Counted from the stretch's first letter, positions 3,662 through 36,285 are shown. The stretch: DNA of 50,828 bases from Nanobdellota archaeon (GCA_030641715.1 DAOWGX010000003.1:1-50828), one strand, 5' to 3'. Notes: generated by a model not told the origin, from the sequence alone. Numbers and translations are program-made.

Positions 3662-3730
3662 CTAAAATTATTTGGTAGGGTATAGCATGCCCCGCCCAAT
3701 TTAAAGATATTTGGTAGGGTATTAAATCAT
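3637..3730. repeat. Tandem repeat related to the 1-116 array (units 3637-3678 and 3679-3717, partial third from 3718)
   Basis: Unit ggtatagcatgccccgcccaatttaaagatatttggtag. The core atgccccgcc(g/c)aat matches the left-flank core gtgccccgacgaat, in the same orientation. Confidence 0.85.
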
Positions 3731-4013
3731 ATTCACACATCAAAACAAAACACATCCACAAACAAATTTCCCATAAGAAATCCATTGACAACAATTCAGA
3801 ACTCAAAATCTGAATTCCTCGACTCACCAGAAACAACGTGGAAAAACAAAAAGAAATACCTCGTGAAAAACTAAAAATTTCGCGGAATAGGTGGTTTCTA
3901 AAGAAAAATTCTATAGAAGTTATTATGTCACAACTATCAAAATTTCCGGAATATCTAATTAAAGGTATTTCACAACTTGTATTCTAGATGGAATACGTAA
4001 AAAGGAGGGTAAA

Positions 4014-4871
4014 ATGAATATAACCATTCAAAGACTTGGACATGCTATCAAAGACGGGGATGTAAATATAGTTCTCAACTATATAAAACAAGGGGGAGAC
4101 CTTGAAAGTAAAACCCCAAATAACAGCTGGACGCCACTTTTTCTTGCGGGTTTATATAGAAAAGATTTCATAGGACTACTTCTCCTGAATAACGGAGCCA
4201 ACCCCTTAGCTGCACACACCCATGACCGTAAGGAAAAAATCTATCCTATACATTTTGCTTCTGACGATAGAACCCCAATCTTACTAAGTCAATTATTAAG
4301 AGATATGAAATTAACTGAAAAAGTAAAATATGACCTCTTAGAATCAACTCTTGATAATGGCATTCTTGAATCAGCAAAGATCCTATTACTCACAGGATTA
4401 GAAATGAATGATAAATTATGGGAAGTTGCAAACGAAGAGGGAAATAAATGCAGTTATAACTTTAATACAGAGCTCTTTGTTGCCGAATTAAAAAACCTTC
4501 TTGATAAACTGAAGTCTGAAGAAGTACGAAAACGGGAGCGTGCATATTATAAATTCGATATTAAAGAAGTTGTGAGTGAAGTTTTAGAATGTTTGTCTCC
4601 AGGTCTGAATTCTAAAAATTACATCGCGTCGAGACTAATTGAAGAAGTACGGAACGACTTTCGAGAACTCGCTAAAGAGGAAGCCCTCGCACCGGTAGAG
4701 TTGATTCACAAATTGGCTGGAAGAGGAGATTCATGCGCACTTAAAAAATGCCTTGAACAGCCTAAGTTCGATGAGTCAACATTGGCACGCGCTTTATCTT
4801 ATGGTATGCAAGAAAAACACGAGGATGTGGTGAAAGTGCTTCTCGATTACGGCGCCAATCCTAATATCTGA
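4014..4871 (+). CDS. Ankyrin-repeat protein
   Basis: 285 aa with SD aaggaggg upstream. Ankyrin-like repeats include 'GGDLESKTPNNSWTPLFLAGLYRKDFIGLLLLNNGANPLA' and 'HEDVVKVLLDYGANPNI'. Confidence 0.7.
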   Translation: MNITIQRLGHAIKDGDVNIVLNYIKQGGDLESKTPNNSWTPLFLAGLYRKDFIGLLLLNNGANPLAAHTHDRKEKIYPIHFASDDRTPILLSQLLRDMKLTEKVKYDLLESTLDNGILESAKILLLTGLEMNDKLWEVANEEGNKCSYNFNTELFVAELKNLLDKLKSEEVRKRERAYYKFDIKEVVSEVLECLSPGLNSKNYIASRLIEEVRNDFRELAKEEALAPVELIHKLAGRGDSCALKKCLEQPKFDESTLARALSYGMQEKHEDVVKVLLDYGANPNI

Positions 4872-4917
4872 AATAGGTAAAAACTACAATTAGCAGATTC
4901 TAAACAAGGAGAAAACC

Positions 4918-5199
4918 ATGGAAAAAACCAGTGTTTCGAATAGAGTTACAAATTCCACCAAAATTCCCTACATAATCATAAATATCTTAGGCGGACTTGC
5001 AGTTTCCTTCCTTTGCATTATGGGATCATATGCACAACTGAGAATTATAAGGTCATATGCAGAAGCAGGATTAATAGAAATGATTTCTCCATTAAGTTTC
5101 ATAGGAGTCCTATTTTTCCCAATCATTGGTTTGTGCTCTCTTACGTTTGTAATACTAAATCTCAAAGAGAAAATAGAGATAGAAAATAAGGCAGAGTAA
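4918..5199 (+). CDS. Small membrane protein (2-3 TM)
   Basis: 93 aa with SD aaggag 6 nt upstream and hydrophobic segments. Confidence 0.55.
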   Translation: MEKTSVSNRVTNSTKIPYIIINILGGLAVSFLCIMGSYAQLRIIRSYAEAGLIEMISPLSFIGVLFFPIIGLCSLTFVILNLKEKIEIENKAE

Positions 5200-5234
5200 T
5201 TAATTAATTAATCAACTTAGATAAAAGGAGAACT

Positions 5235-5474
5235 ATGTCAAAAAGAGATTTAAGACTTGCACTTGTTAGAGTTTGGGACCTCGGATCAACAAAATTAAGA
5301 CATCTAAAAAAAGAGAAAGATTTCAAAATAATTAAGGAATTATTTGGAAATGAGTTCAAAGCGAATGAAAAAGTATTAAGAGCACTTTACAATAAAGGTT
5401 TGAAAAAGAGATACAAAGGAAGTTCTGCACTCAACAAGGATGTAGGAACAGCATTAAAGAAATACAAGCATTGA
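5235..5474 (+). CDS. Small basic hypothetical protein
   Basis: 79 aa, K/R-rich, with SD aaggag upstream. Confidence 0.5.
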   Translation: MSKRDLRLALVRVWDLGSTKLRHLKKEKDFKIIKELFGNEFKANEKVLRALYNKGLKKRYKGSSALNKDVGTALKKYKH

Positions 5475-5584
5475 GTAAAAGCTACATCGAATCTAATTCT
5501 TAGATTTAATGTACTAATATAAAAAAACCACAACACTTTCCCAAAAACACGATTAAAGAAAATATCCAAAGGAGACCAACAATT

Positions 5585-6940
5585 ATGAAAATAAAATCAA
5601 TTCTAAACCTATTCATAACCATCTTAATTCTATTCACATCACAACCAGCATTCGCCGACATCTTCGATAACTTTAACGACGGTGTTATCGACACCCACAA
5701 ATGGGACCTCTGGGAATATTGGACAGATGGAGGCGATATAAGAACAGCAGCCCCCGTCTACGAAGCAAACGGTTCACTGAACATCGATTACCCTCCCAGT
5801 TCCTCGTGGGGTGGCTTGCGTTCAAAAGCTATCTTCGGCGGCGATTTCGATTTCAGAACAGAATGGAAAAATTGGCAGTTTGATGGAGTTCCCAACACTT
5901 ATGAAAATTATGTAGCACAAATTGGCATCGACGTTCAACATCATGATTCGACAGGGAGCGACTCTACCAACATTTTCCGAGGCTGGACGTCCACTTTCCC
6001 CGAAGGATACCACGACGTATACATGAGTTATGCCTATGTAGACAACGCTTGGCATTCAGGTACAGGCAACCTTACCACACAAGACGACACCTCGGGATAC
6101 TTCGGTATAGAAAGAATAGGTTCCACAATCAACACCTATTACTCGGACACAAATCATCAAAGTTATGACCGCTGGGAATTACTCCACCAAGTAAATAATG
6201 CCTCCACCGAACCAGTCAAATTGAAATTAGCAGCCTACACCGGCGACAACACAAATTCCTTTCATGCAGAGTGGGACAATGTCGAGGTTGAGGCCGATAG
6301 GGAAGTTGATATCGATTTTTGGAATGTAGGGAAAAGGGTAGTTGAGTGGGCAGACCGCTTTAAAACAAGTATTGATCTACTGTCTGCATTAAAGCAAGCA
6401 TCAGGACGTCCCTTGGGTATTCCTTTGCCTTCTATGTTTATCCCAGCAGATCTATTACTAATAGATGCACTAAAATCAGACCCTTTTTTAATTTATCAAT
6501 ATCCAGAATTTTTTGAAGGAAATTCTCCCACCCTAGGATATATATCTTTTTCTCCAGTAGACCTTCAAGTAACCAACCCACTAGGAAATTCTATAGGAAA
6601 AACTCATAATGATTTTTCTAATGCCTTATACTTTGAAGGAGACTTCTGGAATACAGGTATAACAAATGATATGGTTTTATTTTGGGACTCTCTTTATGGT
6701 GATTATGAAATTAATATTATTCCAGAAATAGGAGCCCAACCATTAGATACCTTTTCTCTATTAGCATTTGATGATACTACAAGACAGAAATACGTTTCAA
6801 CATTGGCTTTTGGAGAAGAGATAACAAATCAAGATATAAAAAATTTTGATTACAACACAATTCCCGAGCCATCATCTTTATTATTACTAAGTCTTGGTGT
6901 ATCATTTCTTTTTAGTAGGGGACGCCGAAAAATAAACTAG
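5585..6940 (+). CDS. Secreted lectin/LamG-like protein with a PEP-CTERM-type C-terminal sorting signal
   Basis: 451 aa with SD aaggag. N-terminal signal peptide 'ILILFTSQPAFA'. 'DNFNDGVIDTHKWD' is typical of ConA/LamG-like domains. The C-terminus 'IPEPSSLLLLSLGVSFLFSRGRRKIN' reads as PEP + TM + basic cluster. Confidence 0.7.
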   Translation: MKIKSILNLFITILILFTSQPAFADIFDNFNDGVIDTHKWDLWEYWTDGGDIRTAAPVYEANGSLNIDYPPSSSWGGLRSKAIFGGDFDFRTEWKNWQFDGVPNTYENYVAQIGIDVQHHDSTGSDSTNIFRGWTSTFPEGYHDVYMSYAYVDNAWHSGTGNLTTQDDTSGYFGIERIGSTINTYYSDTNHQSYDRWELLHQVNNASTEPVKLKLAAYTGDNTNSFHAEWDNVEVEADREVDIDFWNVGKRVVEWADRFKTSIDLLSALKQASGRPLGIPLPSMFIPADLLLIDALKSDPFLIYQYPEFFEGNSPTLGYISFSPVDLQVTNPLGNSIGKTHNDFSNALYFEGDFWNTGITNDMVLFWDSLYGDYEINIIPEIGAQPLDTFSLLAFDDTTRQKYVSTLAFGEEITNQDIKNFDYNTIPEPSSLLLLSLGVSFLFSRGRRKIN

Positions 6941-6969
6941 AATACTTACTTTTGATAAACAAAAGGCAA

Positions 6970-7413
6970 TTATTGTTTTAAAGACTTCTTAGCAAAATAT
7001 TGCCTTTTGTTTATCAGAAAGAAGATAACAAAAAGAAGATACAACAAAAATATTATCGAATACAAATTCACCGTGTAACCAGTGTACGCCAATTTAAATG
7101 AATTAACAAACACATTAAAAGTCTTAATTCCGGTTGTAACAATTAATAAATCTCGGGCAACACCACTCAAATTCAAGACACCAATCCCCCCTATCAATTC
7201 CAAAATCCCATATATTATGTACGTGTAAGAGAATGTATATATAAAATCTATGTTGCCAATCCACCCTAAAGGTAGATTCCCTGTTTTCACAGCAACAAAA
7301 GCGGACAAGAGATAAAAAAATCCAACTAACAATTGTAATACCGCAACTATAATTATCATCCTCCCGAAAAGAACAAGACCTTTATTCTTCGGTGCATTTT
7401 GTTTTCTTGACAT
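6970..7413 (-). CDS. Polytopic membrane protein
   Basis: 147 aa with about 4 hydrophobic helices. It is the only minus-strand ORF in the island. It has no SD; an A/T box lies about 28 nt upstream. Confidence 0.6.
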   Translation of the reverse strand: MSRKQNAPKNKGLVLFGRMIIIVAVLQLLVGFFYLLSAFVAVKTGNLPLGWIGNIDFIYTFSYTYIIYGILELIGGIGVLNLSGVARDLLIVTTGIKTFNVFVNSFKLAYTGYTVNLYSIIFLLYLLFVIFFLINKRQYFAKKSLKQ

Positions 7414-7500
7414 AGATTATAAACAATAAAAGTGGTATAAGTATATTTCGGTATCACAAAAAAACCAACAAAAGCAGTAAACACACAAAGGGAGAAAACC

Positions 7501-7815
7501 ATGGAAAAAATAAATGTCCAAGAAATGCCCAGAGAAACAGAAACCCCTATTGAACAGACCAATGAAATAGGCTCTCTTTCTACAAAAACTCTCAAGGAGA
7601 TCAAAAAAATCTGTTATGAGTTTCCACTTTACTCAGAGATTAGAAAAAAAGCCCTTGAAAAATGGCTCGACAAAGCAGAAACCTCCGAGGAAGTTAAAAA
7701 AATCCGCCATGTATCCCTGCCAGGTTCACGTATTGAAAATATATCAACTCCCCATGGTTCTGCTTTTCCCAATAGCATATTTGTTCCTGGCATCAACAGC
7801 AATCTCTTTCCGTGA
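7501..7815 (+). CDS. Hypothetical protein whose 3' part overlaps the next ORF in another frame
   Basis: 104 aa with SD agggag upstream. The charged N-terminal half looks coding; the C-terminal 35 aa are doubtful. Confidence 0.45.
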   Translation: MEKINVQEMPRETETPIEQTNEIGSLSTKTLKEIKKICYEFPLYSEIRKKALEKWLDKAETSEEVKKIRHVSLPGSRIENISTPHGSAFPNSIFVPGINSNLFP

Positions 7816-8062
7816 ATGGAAAGAAAGACGTTTCATTAGTTGGAAAAAGTTTCCAGACGAGGGAATAATCATCAGCCTGATTACAGGATTGTTAGCCAGT
7901 CTACTTATAGCCATAGTTCTAATCACGATTCTGACCATAGTTTTTTGTTTGGCTCTCGCCCAGACTTGGATAACTAATTGTTTTGTTCTCGGCTTAAGTC
8001 TCGGCTTAATTATTAGCCTAAGCTTCTCTCTCATCTGGGGAATCCGAAAAGAGTTCAAATAA
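7754..8062 (+). CDS. Membrane protein (3-4 TM); start uncertain (the ORF is open from 7616)
   Basis: The frame-2 ORF is strongly hydrophobic from 'MVLLFPIAYLFLASTAISF' onward. There is no SD at 7754, and it may be joined to 7501 by a frameshift. Confidence 0.4.
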   Translation: MVLLFPIAYLFLASTAISFREWKERRFISWKKFPDEGIIISLITGLLASLLIAIVLITILTIVFCLALAQTWITNCFVLGLSLGLIISLSFSLIWGIRKEFK

Positions 8063-8102
8063 AAATCATTAAGAAAATCATCATCATAAAAGGAGGTTCA
8101 AA

Positions 8103-8336
8103 TTGAAAAAACCCTATACTAAAAAAGTAAATTTTATCTTTTCCGTCGTATCCAGAACATTCGTATTCTGTCTATGTTGTTACCTCATATTCGATTTCTG
8201 CACCGCAGAATCAAACTTTTTCGGAAGAGTCATCCTGTATTACTTGCTGTTCGTACTTGCCCTTTACCTACTGAGAGCAATCAGCCACGAAACCTATTTA
8301 TCTCAACAAAAGAGAATTCACAGCGAGTATACCTAA
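8103..8336 (+). CDS. Small membrane protein
   Basis: 77 aa, TTG start, SD aaggagg 5 nt upstream, two hydrophobic helices. Confidence 0.5.
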   Translation: MKKPYTKKVNFIFSVVSRTFVFCLCCYLIFDFCTAESNFFGRVILYYLLFVLALYLLRAISHETYLSQQKRIHSEYT

Positions 8337-8366
8337 TAAAAACCTAACAAAAAAAGGATTAAAACA

Positions 8367-8972
8367 ATGAGAAAAACATTAATCATAACACTAATCACCC
8401 TCGCAATTTTCTCCCTCGCCGTAACAAACGCAATCTCCTCAGAAACATCAGAATCAGAAAACCTAACCAAAGCAAAATCAGAAGCTCTGGAGAAACGAGA
8501 AACCACCCTCCAGCAGGAAGTAGAAGACATAAATAAGCTGATGAAAGAAATCAGCGAAGATGGAATTGCTGCTGGATTAGAAATGAGAACCCTCGTGCAG
8601 AGTATGGAAAAATTCCAGAAAGACAAAAAGAAGTTTGATAAAGAATTAAAAGTATACAACACCACAACAGAAACAGATTTAGGAGAAAATTTTCACAAAG
8701 CTTTGCAAAGCTACTCGACTCAACATCCAACTAATTGCCGAGATAGCAAAGGAGAAATGAAATTACTATTTGCCGAGGAGTGTGGCAAAGACGTAAGAAT
8801 TGATCCTGCTCCAAGAAGAATACTCCTTTTAGTCCTTTCAATTCTTTTTATAATGATAGGTGTTGCGTTGATTCCTTTTTTAGGAAAAGTAACGAACGGT
8901 AAAGATTTTACTATTATACTCTTAATCGCACTCGGGTTGATAGCACTGGGAATGTTCTTTATCTGTTTGTAA
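8367..8972 (+). CDS. Secreted/anchored coiled-coil protein
   Basis: 201 aa with a signal peptide 'LITLAIFSLAVTNA', a charged coiled-coil middle and two C-terminal TM helices. Confidence 0.6.
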   Translation: MRKTLIITLITLAIFSLAVTNAISSETSESENLTKAKSEALEKRETTLQQEVEDINKLMKEISEDGIAAGLEMRTLVQSMEKFQKDKKKFDKELKVYNTTTETDLGENFHKALQSYSTQHPTNCRDSKGEMKLLFAEECGKDVRIDPAPRRILLLVLSILFIMIGVALIPFLGKVTNGKDFTIILLIALGLIALGMFFICL

Positions 8973-8981
8973 TAATAATTC

Positions 8982-9019
8982 AAAAAAAGCCCATTAGCAA
9001 ATCCCCTAATGGGCTTTTT
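8982..9019 (+). terminator. Intrinsic-type terminator hairpin
   Basis: Stem gcccattag (8989-8997) pairs with ctaatgggc (9006-9014), followed by T5 and preceded by A7. It lies 10 nt after the stop of 8367..8972. Confidence 0.6.
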
Positions 9020-9074
9020 CTCCCCAAAACTCTCAACATAACTCGACAAAAAATAAAAAGAAAGGAGGCAACGG

Positions 9075-9779
9075 ATGCAAAGTCTTAGACCTTTAGAAAG
9101 CATAATGAGAAAAGAGAACGACCTGAAAAAATTCGTTATAAAATATGTTAAAAAACATCTCAAGGAAATAGTCCCCGTTGTCCTTACCACCAGCATCTTC
9201 CTAATCCTCTACGGGCTCCACAACACAGGCTTTGAAACAACCATCACCAAAATCTTAACCCCTATCTTCAACATGGTATCTTTCGTTTTCAGCCAACCCT
9301 TCCTTACCTTGCCTCTAAAATGGATACCCCTTGCACTCGCAATATTCATCATGGGATTCGTCGCGTTAGCCCTAATACTCTGGCCCTACATCCTCGTCGG
9401 AATATCGTTCATGGCACTAATCGCGAAAACTCTTTGGAACAAAACAAAAGAAAGAAAAAGGGTTGTAAAAATAATCTGGATTCTCTTCTTTGTATACATC
9501 TTCACACTTTGGTTTGCCATGGCGAACAACACCGCGAACTGGTTGCCGGGCAAGAGCCAAACAGAATACGTTCTCTACGAAAAATGCAACCCTTGGGCAG
9601 AAAAATACACTCCCGATGCAGCAAAAAAAGTGGCAGGATTACAAGTCATCAAATACGTAGAAACAGAATACGGTCTTGCCATAACCCTCGACGCCGCAAG
9701 AAAACAAAACAACTTGTGGAGTGCGGTTAAGGTAGTATGGGGTGGGGCGAAGATTTTCTTTATGAAAGGACTCTTGTAA
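9075..9779 (+). CDS. Polytopic membrane protein
   Basis: 234 aa, SD aaggagg upstream, at least 5 hydrophobic helices. Confidence 0.6.
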   Translation: MQSLRPLESIMRKENDLKKFVIKYVKKHLKEIVPVVLTTSIFLILYGLHNTGFETTITKILTPIFNMVSFVFSQPFLTLPLKWIPLALAIFIMGFVALALILWPYILVGISFMALIAKTLWNKTKERKRVVKIIWILFFVYIFTLWFAMANNTANWLPGKSQTEYVLYEKCNPWAEKYTPDAAKKVAGLQVIKYVETEYGLAITLDAARKQNNLWSAVKVVWGGAKIFFMKGLL

Positions 9780-9881
9780 AAAACGGTGTCCCAGGCAAAA
9801 CATCCCGATTCCCACAACAGCGGATACCATTTTTTTAAGATAGCAATTAGGCGAAATTTCCTAAATAAGAAAGGGACAACC

Positions 9882-10205
9882 ATGAAAAAAATTCTATGGA
9901 TAACAACTCTATTTTTATTCATTACCGTTTCAAGTGCGTTAGGAATCAGTGGTATATGTCCATTTTTATCCATAAGGTGTTTAAAACGGTCGAACGTAAG
10001 ATGGATTTATGGCCATGTAACAGATAAAAAAGAATGTTGCGCGGATGGATGTTTAGAGATTATCAAAAATAATTCCAACCGGTTAATAAAGGATAATCAA
10101 TATTGTATATTAGTTGAGCAGAACGGCGGAACCGTAGTCTTATATGTCCGTACCAACAGATATACACCGATAGAAATAATGAAACAGATTTTTTGTGATG
10201 AGTAA
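9882..10205 (+). CDS. Small secreted cysteine-rich protein
   Basis: Internal ATG of ORF 9786..10205 gives 'MKKILWITTLFLFITVSSALG' (signal peptide), preceded by aaggga. The mature part has 7 Cys. Confidence 0.5.
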   Translation: MKKILWITTLFLFITVSSALGISGICPFLSIRCLKRSNVRWIYGHVTDKKECCADGCLEIIKNNSNRLIKDNQYCILVEQNGGTVVLYVRTNRYTPIEIMKQIFCDE

Positions 10206-10258
10206 TTTTAGATTCAGCAATCGTTTTAAAAAATATTTACAAAACAAAGGAGAAAGAC

Positions 10259-10684
10259 ATGGGCAGATTTCTTAAAGGTTTAATGTTAGTATGGGGATTA
10301 TCTGTAATTGCTGCCAGTATAATCTGTATGGTTACACTAGTGTATTCCGTTATGAACGGCGATGCAAATCTCCATGGCAGAAGTTACTTCAATCAGAACC
10401 TTGTGATTCTACTCTTCTTCGGTTCATTATTCTATTCCGTAATCAGCGTACTTTTTATCTTCGGTAACGAGCGCATGAAAGAAGATGATAAAGAAAAGAG
10501 GGAGATATTCAATAAATCTAAACCTCTTGAACCTCTTGGAAGATGTCTTAATGAAAAAGAATTTCAAGAATTCAAGGAGTTGAAAGGAAAGCACCCAAGG
10601 TTCAGGCAGATAGTGAATCATTTAAACTCTTGCTCTGCGTGTATAGAAAAACAGAGGGCATACTTGGAATGTCATGAAGTTTAG
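10259..10684 (+). CDS. Membrane protein with a C-terminal Cys/His cluster
   Basis: 141 aa, SD aaggag, two N-terminal TM helices, C-terminal 'CSACIEKQRAYLECH'. Confidence 0.55.
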   Translation: MGRFLKGLMLVWGLSVIAASIICMVTLVYSVMNGDANLHGRSYFNQNLVILLFFGSLFYSVISVLFIFGNERMKEDDKEKREIFNKSKPLEPLGRCLNEKEFQEFKELKGKHPRFRQIVNHLNSCSACIEKQRAYLECHEV

Positions 10685-10727
10685 CAAAGTTATATTTTTA
10701 TGAAGCATTAAAGAAAGGAGGTTCTCA

Positions 10728-11255
10728 GTGATTAACTTTTTCAACGAACTAATAACAAGAAACAATTTCTGGCACATCCCATTCGTCCTTTTATTCTGGG
10801 GCGGATTTCTCAGCTTCATCCTATGGTTTACTCACGCATTATCACAATTCGTAGAATCCAAGATGAAGAAAAAATACGGCACAATATGGTTGCCCGTAAT
10901 CGCATGGAATGGTGTATGCAGGTTTTTTTCCAAACCAAAAAAATGGAAAAAGAAACAAATAATCATAATCGGACTATTCCTATTCATATTCCTCTTACAA
11001 CATTTTGGCTACAAAGCAGATGCAGGAAGAGGATTTTATCAAGGATGCGAGCAAGTGAAAAAAGTTCTAACGCTACAGGTCGCATTAGAACACATGTATC
11101 AAAAAGCCCAAACATCCGAAAAGAAAGTATGGTGGGAAAATCCTGTCAAATTACTTTTGAAAACAGCCAGAATAGCGGGGACAGTCAAGGACGGCGCCGA
11201 AGCAATAAACACGATAAAAGACGCAAAAGAATCTGTAGAAAATTTTGTTAATTAA
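10728..11255 (+). CDS. Membrane protein
   Basis: 175 aa, GTG start, SD aaggagg 6 nt upstream, three hydrophobic helices. Confidence 0.55.
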   Translation: MINFFNELITRNNFWHIPFVLLFWGGFLSFILWFTHALSQFVESKMKKKYGTIWLPVIAWNGVCRFFSKPKKWKKKQIIIIGLFLFIFLLQHFGYKADAGRGFYQGCEQVKKVLTLQVALEHMYQKAQTSEKKVWWENPVKLLLKTARIAGTVKDGAEAINTIKDAKESVENFVN

Positions 11256-11318
11256 ATAGTATCCTAAAACTAGTGGACATATTAAAAGAAAGAAACCAAA
11301 TCTAACGAAAGGCCGACA

Positions 11319-11636
11319 ATGTATGAAGATGAACAAGAAAAGGATGAACAAAAAAAAGTTGTAAAAACGCTCGCCGAAAAAACGAAACGTCTAGCAAGAA
11401 AAACAAAGACCGAATCTAAAAATATTAACAAAAGGAGGTTTAATAATAACATAAAACGAAAAAAGATTCGTCGTTGCGAGAGGGAAATATCAAAAGGGAA
11501 AAATTCACATCCAGCACATCCAAAGAACAACAAGAAAGTCAAAGATCTTGAAAAAAAGATAAAAAAGCATAAAAAAAGCATGAAGAGAGAATACAAAGAA
11601 GAGAGAATACAAAAATTTAGAAAGAAAGAAGCATAA
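11319..11636 (+). CDS. Extremely Lys/Arg-rich small protein
   Basis: 105 aa, predominantly K/R/E, with a weak SD gaaagg. An opposite-strand ORF (11282..11596) is the low-complexity mirror. Confidence 0.4.
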   Translation: MYEDEQEKDEQKKVVKTLAEKTKRLARKTKTESKNINKRRFNNNIKRKKIRRCEREISKGKNSHPAHPKNNKKVKDLEKKIKKHKKSMKREYKEERIQKFRKKEA

Positions 11637-11809
11637 TTTTAAAAATACCGTAACGCAGAAGGAGCTCTTAGCATTCCTTGATGATACTTATCTCGAAGAG
11701 TCTTTCCGCACCTTAAACATCGTATCGATAAAGAAAGGAGGTAATCGATACAACAAACGTAAGAGTAAAAACAACACAACAATTAATTATTAGACAAAAG
11801 GAGTATGTA

Positions 11810-12646
11810 ATGAAAAAGTTTATTTCAATCTTAGTAGTTAGTTTCATGGTTTTTTGCGTAGGTGGAAATTCTTATGCAGGTAACAATAATGAGAATACCT
11901 CCGTCGCGATAGCAGAAGGCGGGAAAGCGGAAGCAGTTGCGAGCCCGATCAATACCAACGAAGCACAGGGTGGGGAAGCGAAAGCAAAATCTAATTCCCA
12001 AGCAAATGCAGAAGCACTCGCAGGATCCTCATCCAGTTCCGGAGCAATGGCACTGGGAAATCAGGAAGTTGGCGGACAAAATGTTGAAATCTCTAAAGAA
12101 GAGAAAGTATACAGTTCCGTACTTAACGTTGCAACACAACAAGGAAAAGACGAGGCCGGCATCAATACTCCTTTTGGGGGACTCATTGATTCCAATCCTT
12201 CAGTAGACGCAAAACTCGAAAAGAAAGGCATCGTTGTAGGTGGTTACGAAGACAGGGGATTACTTGGTGGGAATAAAGATCAGGGCAAAATTGAAGCTGC
12301 AAGAGATATGCAAGCATTCAATTCAGATCTTCGAATAAAAACCGGCCGTGCCACACTCGGTGTTCTTCCAGGAACCGGGAACAGAATTGTCGATTCCCTT
12401 CTTGGAACAAAATCAGTTTGGCCAACTTCAAATTCTCAAGCCAAGGCAGTTAAATCACTCAAGAAAATTAATAATTTAGCGAGTGAAATCCTTGAAATGG
12501 AATTTAAGTTAGAAGATGTATCGAAAGAAGCAAAGATCGCTCAGCTGAACAAGAAAATTGCTGGGAAGAAGAAATCTTTGAAAAAGGAAGAAAGGCGTTT
12601 CAAATTATACAACGAGCAAAGCAAAAGAGTCATTGATATAAGATAA
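11810..12646 (+). CDS. Secreted protein with a C-terminal coiled coil
   Basis: 278 aa, SD aaggag, signal peptide 'ILVVSFMVFCVGGNSYA', an A/G/S/N-rich N-terminal half and a K/E-rich C-terminus. Confidence 0.6.
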   Translation: MKKFISILVVSFMVFCVGGNSYAGNNNENTSVAIAEGGKAEAVASPINTNEAQGGEAKAKSNSQANAEALAGSSSSSGAMALGNQEVGGQNVEISKEEKVYSSVLNVATQQGKDEAGINTPFGGLIDSNPSVDAKLEKKGIVVGGYEDRGLLGGNKDQGKIEAARDMQAFNSDLRIKTGRATLGVLPGTGNRIVDSLLGTKSVWPTSNSQAKAVKSLKKINNLASEILEMEFKLEDVSKEAKIAQLNKKIAGKKKSLKKEERRFKLYNEQSKRVIDIR

Positions 12647-12665
12647 GACTCTTTAAAACGCCGTA

Positions 12666-12732
12666 AAATTTGCCGTTCCCGAAAAGTATACACAACAAGA
12701 ACCCACAACCCAAAGTAGGGAACGGCAAATTT
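12666..12732. other. Perfect 15-bp inverted repeat with a 37-nt spacer
   Basis: aaatttgccgttccc (12666-12680) pairs with gggaacggcaaattt (12718-12732). It lies just downstream of 11810..12646. Confidence 0.8.
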
Positions 12733-12768
12733 ATTTAACCTCTAACTCAATTAAAAAGGAGACGTATT

Positions 12769-13035
12769 GTGAAACAAAATAAAAAACACTTTATGAATAC
12801 AAAGAACGAAACTATTATTTGCGGTATCATCGGCACCATCATCTTTTGTTATATGATAACGATTCCAAGAACGGTTACAGGATCAAACATAACTCTCATT
12901 AATTACCCTGTTGTTAAGTATATGATTCTCTTCGCTACCTCAATTATAGCCCTGTTCTCCGTGGCCATGTTCATAACAGCCTATCTATGCCACAAAATAC
13001 TTAATGATCCTGACAGGGATTGGATAGATCCATAA
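12769..13035 (+). CDS. Small membrane protein
   Basis: 88 aa, GTG start, SD aaggag, two TM helices. Confidence 0.5.
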   Translation: MKQNKKHFMNTKNETIICGIIGTIIFCYMITIPRTVTGSNITLINYPVVKYMILFATSIIALFSVAMFITAYLCHKILNDPDRDWIDP

Positions 13036-13103
13036 AGAAGGTTACAGAAAACGCAATTTAATTTTACAATAATATTTAATTATTAAACGAAAAAGGAGAT
13101 ATA

Positions 13104-13451
13104 ATGAATAAAATTAACATGGAAAAAACGGCAAAAATAACTTGCATTCCTTTAGGAAAAATTAAGGAAGTTTGTGGTCCCTCCCCAGAAATCTTTTCTT
13201 CCAGAAGAAAACTCGACGAAGCAAAAACTATTCGGGGAATAAACCTCCTTCTTCAATATCATCCAAATATCCACGATGAGGCTATGAGGAAACTTAAGAT
13301 AACAAACTGTAGAAAAATTCTCGACAAATGTGAAAAGATTCGCGACGAAGGAAAGATCATCAAAGGACTTATCGACGCATCAAGAATAGCTCCTGACGAT
13401 TCAGATATCAAAGGAGAAATAATCAGAAAACTCGTAGAAATTTTATCCTAA
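13104..13451 (+). CDS. Hypothetical soluble protein
   Basis: 115 aa with SD aaggag 5 nt upstream. Confidence 0.5.
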   Translation: MNKINMEKTAKITCIPLGKIKEVCGPSPEIFSSRRKLDEAKTIRGINLLLQYHPNIHDEAMRKLKITNCRKILDKCEKIRDEGKIIKGLIDASRIAPDDSDIKGEIIRKLVEILS

Positions 13452-13508
13452 AAAGCAATTTCATTGAACATTAATATCAAGAATGCTATATAAAGAAAGG
13501 AGAAGATT

Positions 13509-13874
13509 ATGTTTACAAAAGTTCACCAATTTGAGAAGAAGATTATTCCCAAAGTATTTCTTGTTAAACATTGTGGGATAATCTACGAAGCAAAAACTTC
13601 ACAGCTTGAGACGGCAAGTTCTGAAGGGTTAATATTAGGTATGGTTAGTATTATGCGCAATGGCGACGAAATATTTAAGTCAGGGTTTGTTGTCAGAGTG
13701 GATGAAGATGAAGAAAAATATCTTCACAAGATAATAAAAGTTATTCCACCCCATGTCAATCTAGAACTAAACCCTGTAGGGATATTTAAGTGTCTCCAAA
13801 AAGCATTCAACCATTACAAACCCTTAGCAATCGAAATGGGAAAACTCTATAAAAAAGCAATAAAAAGGAGATGA
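13509..13874 (+). CDS. Hypothetical soluble protein
   Basis: 121 aa with SD aaggag upstream. Confidence 0.5.
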   Translation: MFTKVHQFEKKIIPKVFLVKHCGIIYEAKTSQLETASSEGLILGMVSIMRNGDEIFKSGFVVRVDEDEEKYLHKIIKVIPPHVNLELNPVGIFKCLQKAFNHYKPLAIEMGKLYKKAIKRR

Positions 13875-13877
13875 AAA

Positions 13878-14114
13878 ATGTATACATTCCTCACTAAATT
13901 ATTTTTAATTTTTTCTGCCGGGATAACCTTAGGACTATCTTTGGAAGCTACATGTCTAAACATTGATGATCGTATCTCCCGTATAATTTCAGCAAAAAAA
14001 GGAGTTAAAAATTACAAAACGAAATCACATGTCTATCCTTGGAATTGGGTAGCAGGTTATTGGGCAATATTTTTCACATTGTGTGCGTTAATTAATTTTT
14101 CTAATTACCTTTAA
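13878..14114 (+). CDS. Small membrane protein
   Basis: 78 aa. The SD aaggag is embedded in the last codons of the upstream ORF. Two TM helices. Confidence 0.5.
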   Translation: MYTFLTKLFLIFSAGITLGLSLEATCLNIDDRISRIISAKKGVKNYKTKSHVYPWNWVAGYWAIFFTLCALINFSNYL

Positions 14115-14147
14115 GGTGCTAATATTATTACATAGAAAAGTTGATAA

Positions 14148-14195
14148 GTTGGAATTGGGAGACAGTCAGCGGATAGCCCAATTCCAACATTTTTT
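14148..14195 (+). terminator. Intrinsic-type terminator hairpin
   Basis: gttggaattggg (14148-14159) pairs with cccaattccaac (14177-14188), followed by a T6 run. Confidence 0.65.
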
Positions 14196-14229
14196 GAAAA
14201 ATAACCATATTAAAAAAGAGAGGTATTAA

Positions 14230-14361
14230 ATGCAAAAAAGAAAAGGAAAAAGAGACACGCAATATTTTCGAAAGACCAAATCAACCATCAACAAATACAC
14301 AACTCTCAGCTCAAAAACACCTTGCAACAATCACCGGCGTCCTACGCATAACAATCATTAA
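14230..14361 (+). CDS. Possible 43-aa very basic micro-ORF
   Basis: Preceded by gagagg. Translation is MQKRKGKRDTQYFRKTK... It overlaps the first copy of a 20-bp direct repeat and falls below the ORF-track length cut-off. Confidence 0.25.
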   Translation: MQKRKGKRDTQYFRKTKSTINKYTTLSSKTPCNNHRRPTHNNH

Positions 14362-14436
14362 CACCTTACACAATAAATCTCAAAGCTCAGTTCTTTCTCG
14401 CAATATTTTCGAAAGACAAATTAAAAGGAGGAGAAA

Positions 14437-14937
14437 ATGAGGACATGGATTAAAATTTGTTTAGTTATGTTTGTGCTAATCAGTTGTATTTCGATTCGGA
14501 AATATATTTCTATGCCAAAAGAAGTAACAACACCTATAAAAAATGAAATTGAGCAGGCAATCAAAGTCAAATCAACCGACAATGTAATAGAAAAAAGTAA
14601 GGGTTTTGGTTTGGGTGTGGGTGTGGGAGCTCCTCAGATTGTTTGCGATTCAACAGAGCAGTTTGTCAGTTTGGTTCCTAAAGGAGGAAGAATTTTTACC
14701 TCATTAAAACTGGAAGGAACGCTTCTTAAAAAGACTTACCTTTCTTTCATAGCAGATAGGGCGGGGGTAATTATTTATGAAGATGAATATTCTTATTCTG
14801 AAAAAGGATATGTTTATGAAGTAACAAATTATGATTGGCAAGAAGTTGTTCTTAGAAAAAAAGTAGATGAGTTACTTGTAATGATCTTTGTTTATGGATT
14901 ATTGATATTTCTTGTATTTGTAGTTGTAGGTTTGTAG
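14437..14937 (+). CDS. Secreted/lipoprotein-like protein with a C-terminal TM anchor
   Basis: 166 aa, SD aaggaggag, N-terminal 'CLVMFVLISCIS', C-terminal 'MIFVYGLLIFLVFVVVGL'. Confidence 0.6.
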   Translation: MRTWIKICLVMFVLISCISIRKYISMPKEVTTPIKNEIEQAIKVKSTDNVIEKSKGFGLGVGVGAPQIVCDSTEQFVSLVPKGGRIFTSLKLEGTLLKKTYLSFIADRAGVIIYEDEYSYSEKGYVYEVTNYDWQEVVLRKKVDELLVMIFVYGLLIFLVFVVVGL

Positions 14938-15013
14938 TTGTAGGGATATTTTTTTCGCATTCTTAAATCTCAGAAAACCAAATCACCTTCCAAACCATAA
15001 AAAGGAGGAGAAA

Positions 15014-15346
15014 ATGCCACACTTCGATAACGACGAGCCCATCGAGCATAAGATAAAAAAATTAATAAAAAAATTAGGCAATTATTATGTGGATTCGTTT
15101 TGTGAAACAGTATCTGAAATCGCTAAAGAATCCGGGAATGCAACACCTTCTAGTTTAGCAAGCTTGAGCATTAGGCTAAAAAAGAGGGGTGGAAATTTGA
15201 AGATAGGGCAACTTGAATATGGCAGTCTTTTCGATGTTATGTTAATCCTAACATTCCTGATTGAACCAAGGACTACTAAAAATCCTCCCAAAACTATCAC
15301 ATACACCACCCCGAGGAAATTTCTGAAGAAAATAAAACTGAAATAA
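15014..15346 (+). CDS. Hypothetical protein, tandem paralog A
   Basis: 110 aa with SD aaggaggag. It shares 'M(P/R)HFD', 'FC(E/K)TV', 'LKIGQL' and 'P(R/K)T..NP.K.IT(Y/F)TTP..F..KI' with 15377..15745. Confidence 0.6.
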   Translation: MPHFDNDEPIEHKIKKLIKKLGNYYVDSFCETVSEIAKESGNATPSSLASLSIRLKKRGGNLKIGQLEYGSLFDVMLILTFLIEPRTTKNPPKTITYTTPRKFLKKIKLK

Positions 15347-15376
15347 GATAAGACGAAAAAAGAAAGGAAGTAAAAA

Positions 15377-15745
15377 ATGCGTCATTTTGACGAGGTCATT
15401 CAGCTTCAAGAAGAGAGATTCATCGAAGAATTAAAGGACTCGGACCCCACAGTAGATAAGTTCTGTAAAACTGTATTCATAATCGTTGGAAAATCCAGAA
15501 GAAGATATGCAAAAAGAAGCGGTTATGTACGGCGGAGTATTCCGATTATTTTTCAGATTGCCGCCCAGTTAAGAGATATAAATAGGGACTTAAAGATAGG
15601 GCAACTTACATCAGGTAGTGAAGGTTACCTTAAATTTAAATGGCTGATAACTTCCCTGATTACACCAAAGACCGTCGATAATCCTATCAAAGAAATTACA
15701 TTCACGACACCCGAAGAATTCATGGATAAAATAAGAGAAGGGTAA
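15377..15745 (+). CDS. Hypothetical protein, tandem paralog B
   Basis: 122 aa with SD aaggaag. Paralog of 15014..15346. Confidence 0.6.
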   Translation: MRHFDEVIQLQEERFIEELKDSDPTVDKFCKTVFIIVGKSRRRYAKRSGYVRRSIPIIFQIAAQLRDINRDLKIGQLTSGSEGYLKFKWLITSLITPKTVDNPIKEITFTTPEEFMDKIREG

Positions 15746-15750
15746 AAGAC

Positions 15751-15789
15751 AAAAAAAAGGACTTTCATTAATTTGAAAGTCCTTTTTTT
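15751..15789. terminator. Bidirectional intrinsic-type terminator hairpin
   Basis: A8, then ggactttca (15759-15767), a ttaatt loop, tgaaagtcc (15774-15782), then T7. Confidence 0.65.
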
Positions 15790-15825
15790 AGCCCAACATA
15801 TTTACAAAAAGAAAGAGGTGAACTA

Positions 15826-16140
15826 ATGAGGGAGTTTCTAGATTCTTTATTTAAAAGTATACAAGGGCTATTCACAAGTACAGATTTCATCAGTAGTCTT
15901 GCATTGGGTGCGTTACTCCTCACGATTGTTTTGCTTGTAATTGGAAACAAGCCGATATTCAAAAATAAAGTATTAGAAATAGCAAAAAGAATCTCATGGA
16001 TAATTATGTTTTGTGTAGGCCAAATTATCGAAGTTCTAGTAGTTGCAATAGTGTTTCTTGTAGTGGCAGTTGTTTTCATCCTAATGATTGCATGTATAGG
16101 ACTTGCTATTTTGTTTCTTATTCATATTCCTCCATGTTAA
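15826..16140 (+). CDS. Small membrane protein
   Basis: 104 aa, SD agaggtga, three hydrophobic helices. It is flanked by two related hairpin elements. Confidence 0.5.
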   Translation: MREFLDSLFKSIQGLFTSTDFISSLALGALLLTIVLLVIGNKPIFKNKVLEIAKRISWIIMFCVGQIIEVLVVAIVFLVVAVVFILMIACIGLAILFLIHIPPC

Positions 16141-16158
16141 CTCCCCAATAGAAGAACC

Positions 16159-16200
16159 AAAAAAAAGGACCTCTTCATTAATTTGAACGTCATTTTTTTT
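16159..16200. terminator. Degenerate copy of the 15751-15789 hairpin with a T-run
   Basis: aaaaaaaaggacctcttcattaatttgaacgtcatttttttt is about 85% identical to the 15751 element, with an imperfect stem. Confidence 0.45.
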
Positions 16201-16284
16201 GGTCTAACCTATACACTATAATATCCTATATTGCAATATATATCTTAAGATACAACCTCAACCAATGAAAAACACACAACAACA

Positions 16285-36284: not shown

Positions 36285-36285
36285 C

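Follow-up and report, generated by a model that had tools for sequence, protein, structure and literature searches.

A probable accessory-gene hotspot of small Shine-Dalgarno-led genes between a HerA-family ATPase gene and ppsA in a Pacearchaeota-like DPANN archaeon

In genomes of the Sulfolobus/Haloferax type, genes that stand alone or first in an operon are leaderless, and those inside an operon are led by a Shine-Dalgarno (SD) motif. Integrons have reportedly been described in archaea by Ghaly et al. in 2022. Flexible islands, including archaeal 'dark-matter islands' (Makarova et al., PMC6393860) and the Haloquadratum cell-wall island (PMC4535781), are among the systems closest to the locus analyzed here; only 0.1% of archaeal dark islands have more than ten genes (PMC6393860). 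The window, the whole 50,828-nt stretch of DNA under analysis, comes from a Pacearchaeota-like DPANN archaeon. In it, a block of about 12.6 kb fills the 12.65-kb gap between a HerA-family ATPase gene and ppsA, and we consider it reasonably probable that this block is what one lineage carries in a hypervariable accessory-gene hotspot found throughout a clade of small symbionts, the Pacearchaeota/Woesearchaeota-like DPANN archaea. Overall, the locus reads as a resident hotspot and not as one element that arrived lately or has decayed.

The address of the hotspot is fixed, 3′ of an operon encoding a coiled-coil protein and the ATPase and 5′ of ppsA. In the window (features on the plus strand unless stated otherwise), a tandem array of a 42-nt unit, GGTACAGCGTGCCCCGACGAATAAGAAAGATAAATCTGTTAG (1–126), exceeds the window edge and continues upstream in the source contig, with an N gap inside. 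An RMKL/UPF0020-type methyltransferase gene (116–1198), identified by Pfam and NCBIfam, is a conserved left-flank gene that is syntenic in relatives. The small coiled-coil protein (1276–1743) is the partner of the ATPase in every case, and its gene has a promoter of the leaderless type (AAGGTTTATAAA, ~33 nt 5′ of the ATG at 1276). The ATPase itself (1760–3661), with a wHTH-like C-terminal region, is the conserved 5′ anchor; it matches DUF87/HerA in Pfam, HerA in the PDB and, weakly, CedD/HerA in NCBIfam, and has 80 orthologous loci with identities of 47–81%. A right-hand tandem repeat (2 × 43 nt, 3639–3724) is an insertion that lengthens the ATPase by the residues HSMPRRI; relative L112 has one copy. 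On the far side, a canonical BRE/TATA element, AACATTTATATA at 16281 (−33), precedes leaderless ppsA (16314–18782), and Pfam confirms ppsA, gltX, aIF5B/infB, rpS6e, cysS and eIF2-gamma.

The original prediction had the island start immediately behind the right-hand repeat, but a conserved box and a structured element of ~190 nt (3727–3975) intervene. The bipartite box, TCATATTCACA (3727–3737) with ATCCACA (3754–3760), lies directly 3′ of the ATPase stop codon in relatives; no canonical BRE/TATA was found at 3727–3760, and the box may serve as a non-canonical promoter or mark a processing site. The RNA-like element (3787–3975), also conserved, has four hairpins (H1 3793–3816, H2 3853–3898, H3 3913–3937 and H4 3948–3971) with GGAAUAC-type motifs at 3853, 3884 and 3948; another such motif is at 3990. 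The z-score of the fold is −3.25. A single copy stands behind the ATPase in 28 loci according to nhmmer, and a covariance model yielded 16 matches. Of the cells in an alignment fitted to this structural model, 91% are paired, against 71.5% after shuffling; in the same alignment, double changes occur at 33 of 39 pairs. The element has no Rfam match and is neither a tRNA nor a tmRNA. The first SD-led open reading frame (ORF) lies 19–64 nt 3′ of it in 12 of 18 loci, and box and element together precede the array in the subclade with ATPase identities of ~60% or more. We propose that this so far undescribed element is the array's 5′ leader.

The block is filled by coding-strand ORFs separated by spacers of 30–120 nt. 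As predicted, recognizable domains are scarce: searches of Pfam, PHROGs and NCBIfam found ankyrin repeats and a PEP-CTERM tail alone. The forecast of about 15 secreted or membrane ORFs also agrees with our count, at least one hydrophobic segment being present in 15 of 23. At the entry side, an ankyrin-repeat protein of 285 aa (4014–4871, GGAGG at −5) is followed by a 93-aa protein with two transmembrane (TM) segments (4918–5199) and a 79-aa basic protein (5235–5474), both with an AGGAG SD. A laterally exchanged two-gene module of 1.84 kb (5569–7412) encodes a secreted beta-rich PEP-CTERM protein (5585–6940) and, convergent to it on the minus strand, a 147-aa TM protein (6970–7413). The former had been called a LamG/PEP-CTERM protein; the PEP-CTERM tail stands, but LamG is unverified, with only a sub-threshold DUF1583_C match, and the AF2 model (pLDDT 37) was too poor for use. 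A 104-aa ORF (7501–7815, GGAG) overlaps the gene of a TM protein (7754–8062, no SD, start at 7616 possible) whose family, in four loci, is among the few that recur. Next are a 77-aa protein with two TM segments (8103–8336, GGAGG, TTG start), a 201-aa protein that combines a signal peptide and a coiled coil with TM segments at its C terminus (8367–8972, AGGA motif), and a terminator-like 16-bp palindrome between A and T runs (8982–9021).

Toward ppsA, the block continues with a 234-aa multi-TM protein (9075–9779, GGAGG) that has just two homologue clusters among 1.84 billion representative proteins, a 107-aa secreted protein (9882–10205, only a weak purine-rich motif), a 141-aa protein with two TM segments (10259–10684, AGGAG), a 175-aa TM protein (10728–11255, GGAGG, GTG start), a 105-aa very basic protein (39% K+R; 11319–11636, no clear SD) and a 278-aa secreted protein (11810–12646, AGGAG), whose sole match among 5.8 billion protein clusters was itself. 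Behind a perfect inverted repeat (15-bp arms, 37-nt spacer; 12666–12732), AGGAG precedes an 88-aa protein with two TM segments (12769–13035), soluble proteins of 115 aa (13104–13451) and 121 aa (13509–13874), and a 78-aa membrane or secreted protein (13878–14114) encoded 3 nt behind the preceding gene. A 166-aa protein (14437–14937, GGAGG), which has a signal peptide as well as a C-terminal anchor, has homologues adjoining ppsA in L114 (67%) and L001 (42%); another, at 57%, lies in the hotspot of L112. A paralogous pair of 110 aa (15014–15346) and 122 aa (15377–15745) has a fused homologue in L001. A terminator-like 16-bp perfect palindrome followed by T7 (15752–15789) has a related copy at 16160–16200, behind the last island gene, which encodes a 104-aa TM protein (15826–16140, GAGG). 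The stem-loop terminators anticipated for several ORFs are partly recovered: the island contains four long palindromes and seven intergenic T5–8 runs, but there is no overall enrichment of hairpin-plus-T terminators (13 vs 9.5 ± 3.2 in shuffles). If the seven T runs terminate transcription, internal promoters would be required, of a kind that the core promoter matrix (PWM) misses.

The translation signals of the island are distinct from those of the core. An AAGGAG-type motif 4–10 nt before the start, as had been claimed, is present in 19 of 23 island ORFs vs 4 of 38 core genes (Fisher p = 1.8e-8); SD is scored here as a sequence motif, the host 16S 3′ end lying outside the window. GGAGG, AGGAG, GGAG or GAGG ends 4–10 nt before 17 of the 22 plus-strand ORFs between 4014 and 16140; ORFs 8367 and 15377 have AGGA only, and plus-strand ORFs 7754, 9882 and 11319 have no SD, nor does the sole minus-strand gene. 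The four core SD motifs (from 16314 onward), plus four G-runs, are every one operon-internal. The view of the core as leaderless and without SD holds for operon-first genes, 12 of 20 of which have a BRE/TATA 12-mer (consensus AAGxxTTTAAATA) starting exactly at −33 from the ATG, but not for tightly coupled internal cistrons, which use SD. The core PWM, for which this window alone was the training set, gave two marginal intergenic matches in the island, and sigma-70-type promoters are not enriched there (44 vs 41 ± 7).

The same split is seen across 68 non-redundant loci: a promoter at −38 to −28 is present for 28% of ORFs outside the hotspot vs 4% of hotspot plus-strand ORFs, and an SD for 19% vs 50%. 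Outside the hotspot in relatives, 42% of ORFs with a same-strand upstream gene ≤20 nt away have an SD, and 5–11% at other spacings; inside it, the figure is 47–62% at spacings of 21–150 nt. SD-led small genes are uncommon in the rest of the clade's loci. These signals, described as bacterial in style, do not call for a bacterial source, since the host's own tightly coupled internal cistrons carry the same SD; with hotspot ORFs lacking the core BRE/TATA at −33, expression from leadered or polycistronic transcripts is a better explanation of SD use than bacterial origin.

A check for foreign composition was negative; the island is not compositionally foreign. Its GC content is 0.369 vs 0.381 in core plus-strand genes, and its fourfold sites have the host's strong A+C-rich plus-strand bias, mirrored in the single minus-strand gene. 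The dN/dS values of island genes are 0.21–0.30 (0.21–0.25 for the module at 5569–7412) vs 0.05–0.07 for the ATPase and ppsA, and the island ORFs are real genes under relaxed purifying selection. Relative to L112, dS is 0.72 for an island TM gene and 1.49 for the ATPase of the same pair. Relative to L114, the 166-aa gene (0.77) resembles ppsA (0.69), which suggests vertical descent.

In relatives, the gap between the ATPase gene and ppsA is 0.77–8.9 kb or >10 kb, and the block is present, absent or different, consistent with an accessory, surface-oriented island as foreseen. ORFs in relatives were called heuristically throughout (first ATG, greedy overlap removal). For 16 loci with a defined gap, TM-bearing ORFs make up 52% in the hotspot vs 13% outside, and mean ORF length is 127 aa vs 288 aa. 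Hotspot ORFs fall into 315 clusters, 292 of them singletons, and ~20 of 125 hotspot ORFs have a Pfam match of any kind; in loci without ppsA the hotspot was taken as the 10 kb 3′ of the ATPase, where some core genes may be counted in. Searches of libraries of 5.8 billion and 1.84 billion proteins found little or nothing resembling the island proteins. Hotspot genes are short and, with few exceptions, lie on the ATPase strand; most encode membrane or secreted proteins, and nearly all are confined to one lineage. Content is mosaic, with a few backbone genes that close relatives have in common at very uneven divergence, and with lineage-specific blocks, here about 7501–14114. At least one module (5569–7412) has been swapped laterally with an integrase-bearing mobile element: it is 77% identical to L110 and 72% to L028 between unrelated flanks, and its neighbors in L028 are a XerA-like integrase, RadC, DUF2958, SpoVG and a distant copy of the coiled-coil and ATPase pair. 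The suggestion of a laterally acquired island applies to this module, not to the island as one recent acquisition, given its host-like composition and the lack of an integrase or att site.

How such a hotspot could acquire its architecture may be outlined as follows. Transcription of its genes would start at the upstream operon or in the leader region, perhaps also at weak internal AT-rich boxes, and would yield RNAs that are leadered or polycistronic; T-tracts would split the island into at most ~8 transcription units. With no promoter at −33, each cistron would need an SD site. Expression would then be limited to inserted or newly arisen ORFs that are both co-oriented and SD-equipped, which would account for an architecture that looks uniformly 'bacterial'. 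Judging by TM and signal features, ankyrin repeats and the PEP-CTERM tail, the most likely role of the products is in cell-surface remodeling or host-cell contact.

That the block is a degraded provirus, plasmid or ICE integrated beside the ATPase gene, its integrase and replication genes since lost, we regard as unlikely. Its 22 co-oriented small ORFans do look like the genomes of archaeal viruses or plasmids, the LamG-like/TM module stands again beside the XerA-like integrase of L028, tandem repeats mark the left border, and the contigs of the closest MAGs break in this region. However, no integrase, replication or capsid gene, att site, tRNA, viral family or PHROGs match was found for the island, the border sequences have no copy at the distal end, and neither the ATPase nor the leader element was found in IMG/VR. 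Dozens of relatives hold unrelated content at the same address without integrases, fourfold-site composition equals the host's, and the dS of the 166-aa gene suggests vertical descent. Recent acquisition from bacteria, with SD motifs and hairpin-plus-T terminators as retained donor signals, is very improbable. Bacterial genes are documented in DPANN archaea (PMC8204110), PEP-CTERM is a sorting signal typical of bacteria, and relatives' hotspots include families of bacterial type: sigma-70 in L001, L043, L090 and L112, and single weak matches to CsrA, SutA-RBD, FHA and DUF333. Against this reading stand the host's composition and neutral-site strand bias, unenriched sigma-70-type promoters, the SD of the host's coupled cistrons, the few Pfam matches and the absence of any homologue, bacterial or other, for most island proteins.

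Two further readings concern what the ORFs are, and we give each a slimmer chance still. They might be fast-evolving membrane parts of an apparatus for DNA transfer or secretion, Ced/T4SS-like and powered by the neighboring HerA/VirB4-like ATPase, behind which the array always lies on the same strand; the ATPase weakly matches CedD, TraC and VirB4, and many small products with two TM segments resemble pilins or VirB2/3. Yet these matches fall far under family cut-offs, HerA provides the closest solved structures, hotspots have no conserved gene in common, and gaps of 0.77–1.8 kb in some relatives hold one to four ORFs with no common membrane protein. Alternatively, many ORFs could be frames that are young, born de novo or without function, in an A/C-rich spacer that is transcribed and acts as a 'gene nursery', as their extreme ORFan content, short domain-free sequences and A/C-rich neutral plus strand might suggest. 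Strong, correctly spaced SD motifs before 17–19 of 22 plus-strand ORFs, coherent TM and signal architecture, dN/dS of 0.21–0.30 wherever a homologue exists, and dense coding-strand filling all argue against it.

As a resident hotspot, the locus shares traits with several known systems. Like chromosomal integron cassette arrays, it has small co-oriented ORFs without promoters, most of them of unknown function and each with a ribosome-binding site, a conserved upstream platform, and folded hairpins of conserved structure; unlike them, it has no IntI or other recombinase gene within ±10 kb and no repeated cassette-boundary sequence was found in it, and most spacers (30–70 nt) are too short for attC. 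It resembles tRNA/ncRNA-associated islands and ICEs in starting right behind a structured RNA-like element and in having one module in common with an integrase-bearing contig, but it has no integrase, its element is neither tRNA nor tmRNA, and no duplicated 3′ fragment of the element lies at the far end.

With Thermococcales VARTIG (PMC8416519) and polymorphic toxin-like loci it shares a conserved upstream gene, unique downstream gene combinations, inter-lineage recombination and a proposed role in cell-cell recognition or conflict; its anchor is a HerA-family ATPase and not a large Ig-domain protein, and neither a hypervariable C-terminal domain nor a toxin or immunity signature was found. 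Dark-matter islands offer the same fixed address between conserved genes, strain- or lineage-specific content, many small uncharacterized membrane or surface proteins and some mobile-element exchange. With 22–23 consecutive dark genes, this locus belongs to their rare tail, and it differs in content that is almost wholly non-recurrent over 68 loci, strict co-orientation with the HerA-like ATPase upstream, the conserved structured element found at its entry, and translation signals of another class than those of the core. The core genes, with BRE/TATA at −33 and SD concentrated at spacings ≤20 nt, follow the Sulfolobus/Haloferax-type rule, whereas the hotspot uses SD at spacings of 21 to >150 nt and also for the first gene after the leader; SD dependence here marks a whole gene class and not operon position alone.

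Between a HerA-like ATPase gene (1760-3661, plus strand) and ppsA (16314-18782, plus strand) lies an island of about 12.6 kb with 23 ORFs, 22 on the plus strand and one (6970-7413) on the minus strand. Using tblastn with the window proteins, we found that relatives keep the order MTase, small coiled-coil protein, HerA-like ATPase, gap and ppsA. The gap, 12.65 kb in the window, measures 0.77, 1.5, 1.8, 2.0, 3.0, 3.6, 4.3, 4.5, 6.8, 7.3, 8.9 or >10 kb in the relatives. The ATPase alignment comprises 80 metagenomic loci with 47-81% identity, some on contigs of 0.3-1 Mb; none of these 80 loci matched an island protein (E ≤ 1e-4), and among the genome loci only L001 and L006 did. The block is not a fixed part of these genomes: the flanks are conserved, the length is variable and the content is unrelated between loci. 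We refer to this region as the hotspot and to the housekeeping genes from 16314 onward as the core. Both island junctions are reproduced in independent assemblies, so that a chimeric assembly is unlikely: in the relative L112 (ATPase 87% identical) the ATPase is followed by the leader element described below and then by the hotspot, and in L114 and L001 a gene of the same family as the 166-aa gene 14437-14937 stands directly before ppsA.

The window belongs to a 72.5-kb metagenomic scaffold (ENA ERZ23498475, ZHAN22-2 scaffold_132; sample SAMN18200493) of a DPANN archaeon. Its ppsA shares 94% and 92% identity with genes from 'Candidatus Pacearchaeota' and Nanoarchaeota MAGs and 75-80% with those of several MAGs labelled Woesearchaeota, and the core genes gltX, aIF5B, rpS6e, cysS and eIF2-gamma were identified with Pfam. 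Four large core-region ORFs of 469-893 aa (22444-23940, 33633-36314, 38124-40244 and 43474-44883, all minus strand) have no Pfam match at E ≤ 1e-5; at least the first is well conserved, its homologues in relatives being 67-81% identical. In the closest MAGs (L001, L002 and L003) the contigs stop in or shortly before the hotspot region, from 3.2 kb upstream of ppsA to within ppsA, a pattern that strain heterogeneity in the hotspot, by breaking assemblies, would produce.

The island had been set apart from a leaderless core by its translation signals. We listed the ORFs and read each upstream region, counting as an SD a motif ending 4-10 nt before the start. Seventeen of the 22 plus-strand island ORFs carry GGAGG, AGGAG, GGAG or GAGG and two more carry AGGA; the other three and the single minus-strand gene have no SD. 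The core, originally described as lacking SDs, has few rather than none (4/38; Fisher p = 1.8e-8 against the island), and all four are tightly coupled internal cistrons. The TATA-like box reported for core genes was recovered by a Gibbs-type search on 20 operon-first core genes as a BRE/TATA 12-mer, AAGxxTTTAAATA, whose start lies exactly at -33 from the ATG in 12 of them, the arrangement of leaderless genes. A PWM scan for this promoter gave only two marginal intergenic matches in the 12.6-kb island (10232 and 13071) and cleanly recovered that of ppsA (16281). The hairpin+T terminators noted earlier fared less well: there is no overall enrichment (13 vs 9.5 ± 3.2), but four long palindromes and seven intergenic T5-8 runs do exist.

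Two island spacers have features of their own. In the 173-nt spacer that precedes 11810, an orphan AAAGGAGGTAATCGATA (11728-11751) consists of a perfect SD followed by ATA in place of ATG, possibly the relic of a decayed gene start. The 322-nt spacer 14115-14436 contains a 27-nt direct repeat (14258-14284 and 14399-14425, CGCAATATTTTCGAAAGAC...) and a very basic 43-aa ORF (14230-14361) with a GAGAGG motif upstream, which may be the remnant of a duplicated gene start.

The same division between gene classes is seen in the relatives. In the 16 loci where the gap is defined, its ORFs are shorter than other ORFs (127 vs 288 aa), more often contain TM segments (52% vs 13%) and are more often SD-led (38% vs 9%). 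Outside the hotspot, 42% of ORFs have an SD when a same-strand gene lies ≤20 nt upstream and 5-11% otherwise; inside it, the proportion is 47-62% at spacings of 21-150 nt. Every run of at least three consecutive SD-led ORFs starts at or downstream of the coiled-coil/ATPase pair, on the same strand as the pair. Across 68 non-redundant loci, a core-type promoter is found at -38 to -28 in 28% of outside ORFs vs 4% of hotspot plus-strand ORFs, and an SD in 19% vs 50%. The 341 hotspot plus-strand ORFs of these loci fall into 315 clusters, 292 of them singletons, and about 20 of 125 SD-led hotspot ORFs from relatives have a Pfam match. Bacterial-type families among the relatives' hotspot ORFs include Sigma70_r2/r4, PEP-CTERM, FHA and DUF333, with CsrA and SutA matching weakly. 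Sigma-70 family genes (regions 2, 3 and 4) occur in the ATPase-ppsA hotspots of four relatives (L001, 2-514; L043, 3166-4089; L090, 16154-17086; L112, 5575-6159), and in L112 the Sigma70_r4 gene comes first after the leader. Sigma-70 in DPANN, along with the idea of bacterial hosts, has been reported previously (PMC8204110).

At fourfold sites the plus strand of the whole window has about 47% A, 25% C, 9% G and 19% T regardless of coding strand: core plus-strand genes have A.47, C.25, G.09 and T.19, core minus-strand genes are their mirror image, and the single minus-strand island gene mirrors the bias as well. Plus-strand island genes (A.38, C.23, G.11, T.28) lean in the same direction as those of the core. 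Because this strand-specific mutational bias is extreme, codon usage differs more by strand (rms RSCU difference 0.94) than between island and core plus-strand genes (0.39), and GC content is 0.369 in the island vs 0.381 in core plus-strand genes. Codon usage, neutral sites and GC content thus do not bear out an island of foreign composition. Since the island shares the direction of the host's bias, it has resided in such a genome or came from one. Within the stretch of the contig that was examined, the skew does not switch. Genes 14437-16140, the last four of the island, do not have the C>G fourfold skew of the remaining plus strand, at a small number of sites (~190), possibly because they arrived more recently or were inverted.

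Relatives share a box immediately behind the ATPase stop codon, made up of TCAYAYTCACA, about 20 nt and ATCCACA. In the window this box (3727-3760) is displaced by an insertion of two 43-nt repeats that also lengthens the ATPase. The repeats belong to a minisatellite of 42-43-nt units (core AGCRTGCCCCGMC) found at 1-126 and 3639-3724 of the window and at 4260-4525 of L029, the source contig that reaches left of the window. At least five copies, with an assembly N-gap, lie upstream of the MTase gene, and the two at the ATPase 3' end are fused to the gene and add the residues HSMPRRI; L112 has one copy of the unit and more distant relatives have none. A ketoacyl-synthase gene (L029 2892-4151, minus strand) lies directly left of the window and is inserted, together with the left repeat array, between rpL10e and the MTase gene. 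These two genes adjoin in locus L008 and in L112, so the site looks like a second insertion point. We rejected a replication origin at the repeat arrays, across which the fourfold-site skew does not switch, and also the 43-nt repeat as an att site; it is a local insertion or minisatellite, missing in most relatives and with no copy at the distal border.

The box is followed by an element of about 190 nt (3787-3975) that folds into four hairpins, H1-H4 (z = -3.25). By nhmmer, the element is present in 28 loci, in one copy each that invariably separates the HerA-like ATPase from the variable array; box and leader occur together in the window (3727-3975), L006, L030-L043, L054-L065 and L112. In relatives with an ATPase of less than about 60% identity, the element was not detected. 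A covariance model built from the single window copy finds 16 copies. In the covariance-model alignment the paired share of cells is 91.3%, compared with 71.5% in shuffles (0/500 reach this value) and ≤50% in slid controls, and 33 of 39 pairs have changes on both sides; as the alignment is fitted to the model, these figures lean towards structure. From locus to locus the sequences of H1 and of the inner H2 stem change visibly while complementarity is kept. With RNAalifold on a plain MAFFT alignment only H4 was recovered, because the variable hairpins misalign there. Thus, the element is predicted to be a structured RNA with compensatory changes, on an alignment fitted to the model. An ORF at 3838-3987 was rejected as a gene, because spacing differs between relatives by amounts not divisible by 3 and the stems show covariation, which indicates RNA rather than protein.

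The leader has four to five GGAAUAC-type motifs, of which the last closely precedes the first SD. The distance from H4 to the start of the first SD-led ORF is 19-64 nt in 12 of 18 loci, with no T-run between, and we found no canonical promoter between the ATPase stop and the element. We read the element as a structured 5' leader of the array, or as a processing or regulatory element of it; it may alternatively be an independent sRNA. GGAATA motifs as an island-wide signal were rejected, as they are not concentrated in its spacers; the three copies at 1296-1338 lie inside a coding region. Rfam 15 gave no match in the window at the gathering score and noise only at E ≤ 10 in 3600-4100, and full-text literature searches returned no description of the hotspot or its leader element.

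The secreted or membrane character ascribed to the island products holds, with hydrophobic segments in 15 of 23, as does the near absence of recognisable domains, limited to Ank repeats and a PEP-CTERM tail. The product of 5585-6940 (plus strand) ends in a PEP motif, a TM helix and a basic tail, and the motif is invariant in six homologues. With PF07589 at 23.1 bits (cut-off 20.7) and TIGR02595 at 21 (cut-off 16), it is predicted from its C-terminal motif to be a PEP-CTERM, exosortase-type substrate. A LamG/ConA-like fold is putative for this protein, called LamG-like below: the only profile match, DUF1583_C, scores 20.2 bits, under the cut-off of 22.9, a PDB sequence search gave no match, and the AF2 model (pLDDT 37), all-beta over residues 59-241, is too poor for fold identification. 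Homologues are few: five for the PEP-CTERM protein, two for 14437-14937, two for 9075-9779 (among 1.84 billion representatives) and none for 11810-12646 (among 5.8 billion clusters).

A module of 1.84 kb (5569-7412), comprising the PEP-CTERM gene and the convergent TM gene 6970-7413, shares 77% nucleotide identity with locus L110 and 72% with L028, with unrelated flanks. L028 (Logan SRR29092999, 12.8 kb) encodes a XerA-like integrase, RadC, DUF2958, SpoVG, DUF3825 and SD-led small genes, in addition to the LamG-like/TM module and a distant coiled-coil + HerA-ATPase pair (27-31% identity), and is a putative DPANN mobile element. The shared module is direct evidence of exchange with it. Sharing is mosaic and divergence incongruent even between close relatives. 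To L112, identity is 87% for the ATPase, 71% for the TM protein, 57% for the 166-aa protein and 37% for the LamG-like protein, which is 68-71% identical in L028 and L110; the window block ~7501-14114 is missing from L112. For the 166-aa gene vs ppsA, identities are 42% vs 94% in L001 and 67% vs 92% in L114. dN/dS is 0.21-0.30 in island genes and 0.05-0.07 in the ATPase and ppsA. At 0.72, dS of the TM gene against L112 is half the ATPase value (1.49), in line with recombination; against L114, the 166-aa gene and ppsA have matching dS (0.77 and 0.69), in keeping with vertical descent combined with rapid evolution of the protein.

The original prediction offered a laterally acquired surface island or a degraded integrated element. 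The former stands in that the locus is accessory and surface-oriented with some lateral input, but it is neither compositionally foreign nor a decayed element. Decay of a provirus, plasmid or ICE is not supported: we found neither hallmark genes nor att sites nor viral relatives. Pfam, PHROGs and NCBIfam searches of the island were negative for integrase or recombinase, replication and structural hallmark genes; the L028 integrase, used as a tblastn query, was negative in all hotspot loci; there is no tRNA gene, and neither the border repeat nor the leader sequence recurs at the distal end. A provirus in particular was rejected on the negative PHROGs result for the island and because IMG/VR yielded neither the ATPase nor the LamG-like protein nor the RNA element; the 90 matches to the H4 pattern there were due to chance, with no covariance-model match among the 80 loci listed.

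Individual bacterial-type genes do enter such hotspots, but recent import of the whole block from bacteria is contradicted by its composition and lack of homologues. The adjacent ATPase could suggest a Ced/T4SS-like DNA-transfer machine; against this, its CedD score is 59.9 bits vs a cut-off of 600, its best PDB relatives are HerA, and no membrane protein (CedA/VirB2/3/6-type partner) is conserved across hotspots. The SDs and the dN/dS values contradict a pure 'gene nursery'. The 'bacterial' signals of the island would follow instead from how the hotspot is expressed. In the simplest reading, hotspot genes would be expressed from leadered or polycistronic transcripts and would for that reason need SD sites, as the host's own internal cistrons do.

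We also consider, as a speculative and rather unlikely extension, that the ATPase operon, the post-stop box and the GGAAUAC four-hairpin leader might form a dedicated platform that captures promoter-less genes of foreign, recombined or de novo origin for expression as SD-led cistrons, giving an integron-like function with no recognisable integrase and a renewable surface and effector supply. If so, Pacearchaeota and Woesearchaeota would gain regulated, quickly renewable surface or effector proteins for hosts, possibly bacterial, from a repertoire that includes bacterial-type regulators such as sigma-70.

DPANN archaea rely on physical contact with host cells; to our knowledge, almost nothing is known about the genes that mediate this contact or about their renewal in such reduced genomes. 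The locus, downstream of the HerA-like ATPase and upstream of ppsA, provides a precise, clade-wide address of surface and secreted protein turnover. In these genomes, accessory genes can be told from core genes by a simple rule, an SD with no BRE/TATA at -33, which can help annotation and the choice of candidate symbiosis factors, and the conserved four-hairpin leader with its GGAAUAC repeats offers a testable regulatory handle. A further caution is that expression signals of an archaeon may be 'bacterial-looking' without being of bacterial origin.

Among known systems, an integron cassette array was rejected, as no recombinase (IntI) lies within ±10 kb in any ATPase locus. In integrons an attC hairpin of about 57-141 nt follows each cassette, whereas island spacers are mostly 30-70 nt, SD included, and unlike an attC series the island palindromes number only four and are mutually unrelated save one pair. 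Flexible genomic islands, or hypervariable hotspots, are defined by variable content and length between conserved flanks, and by synteny both the window locus and those of its relatives have this organization. The locus is thus a variation on the known flexible-island theme, in which the HerA-ATPase anchor, the conserved structured leader and the gene-class-wide split between SD-led and leaderless genes are unusual.
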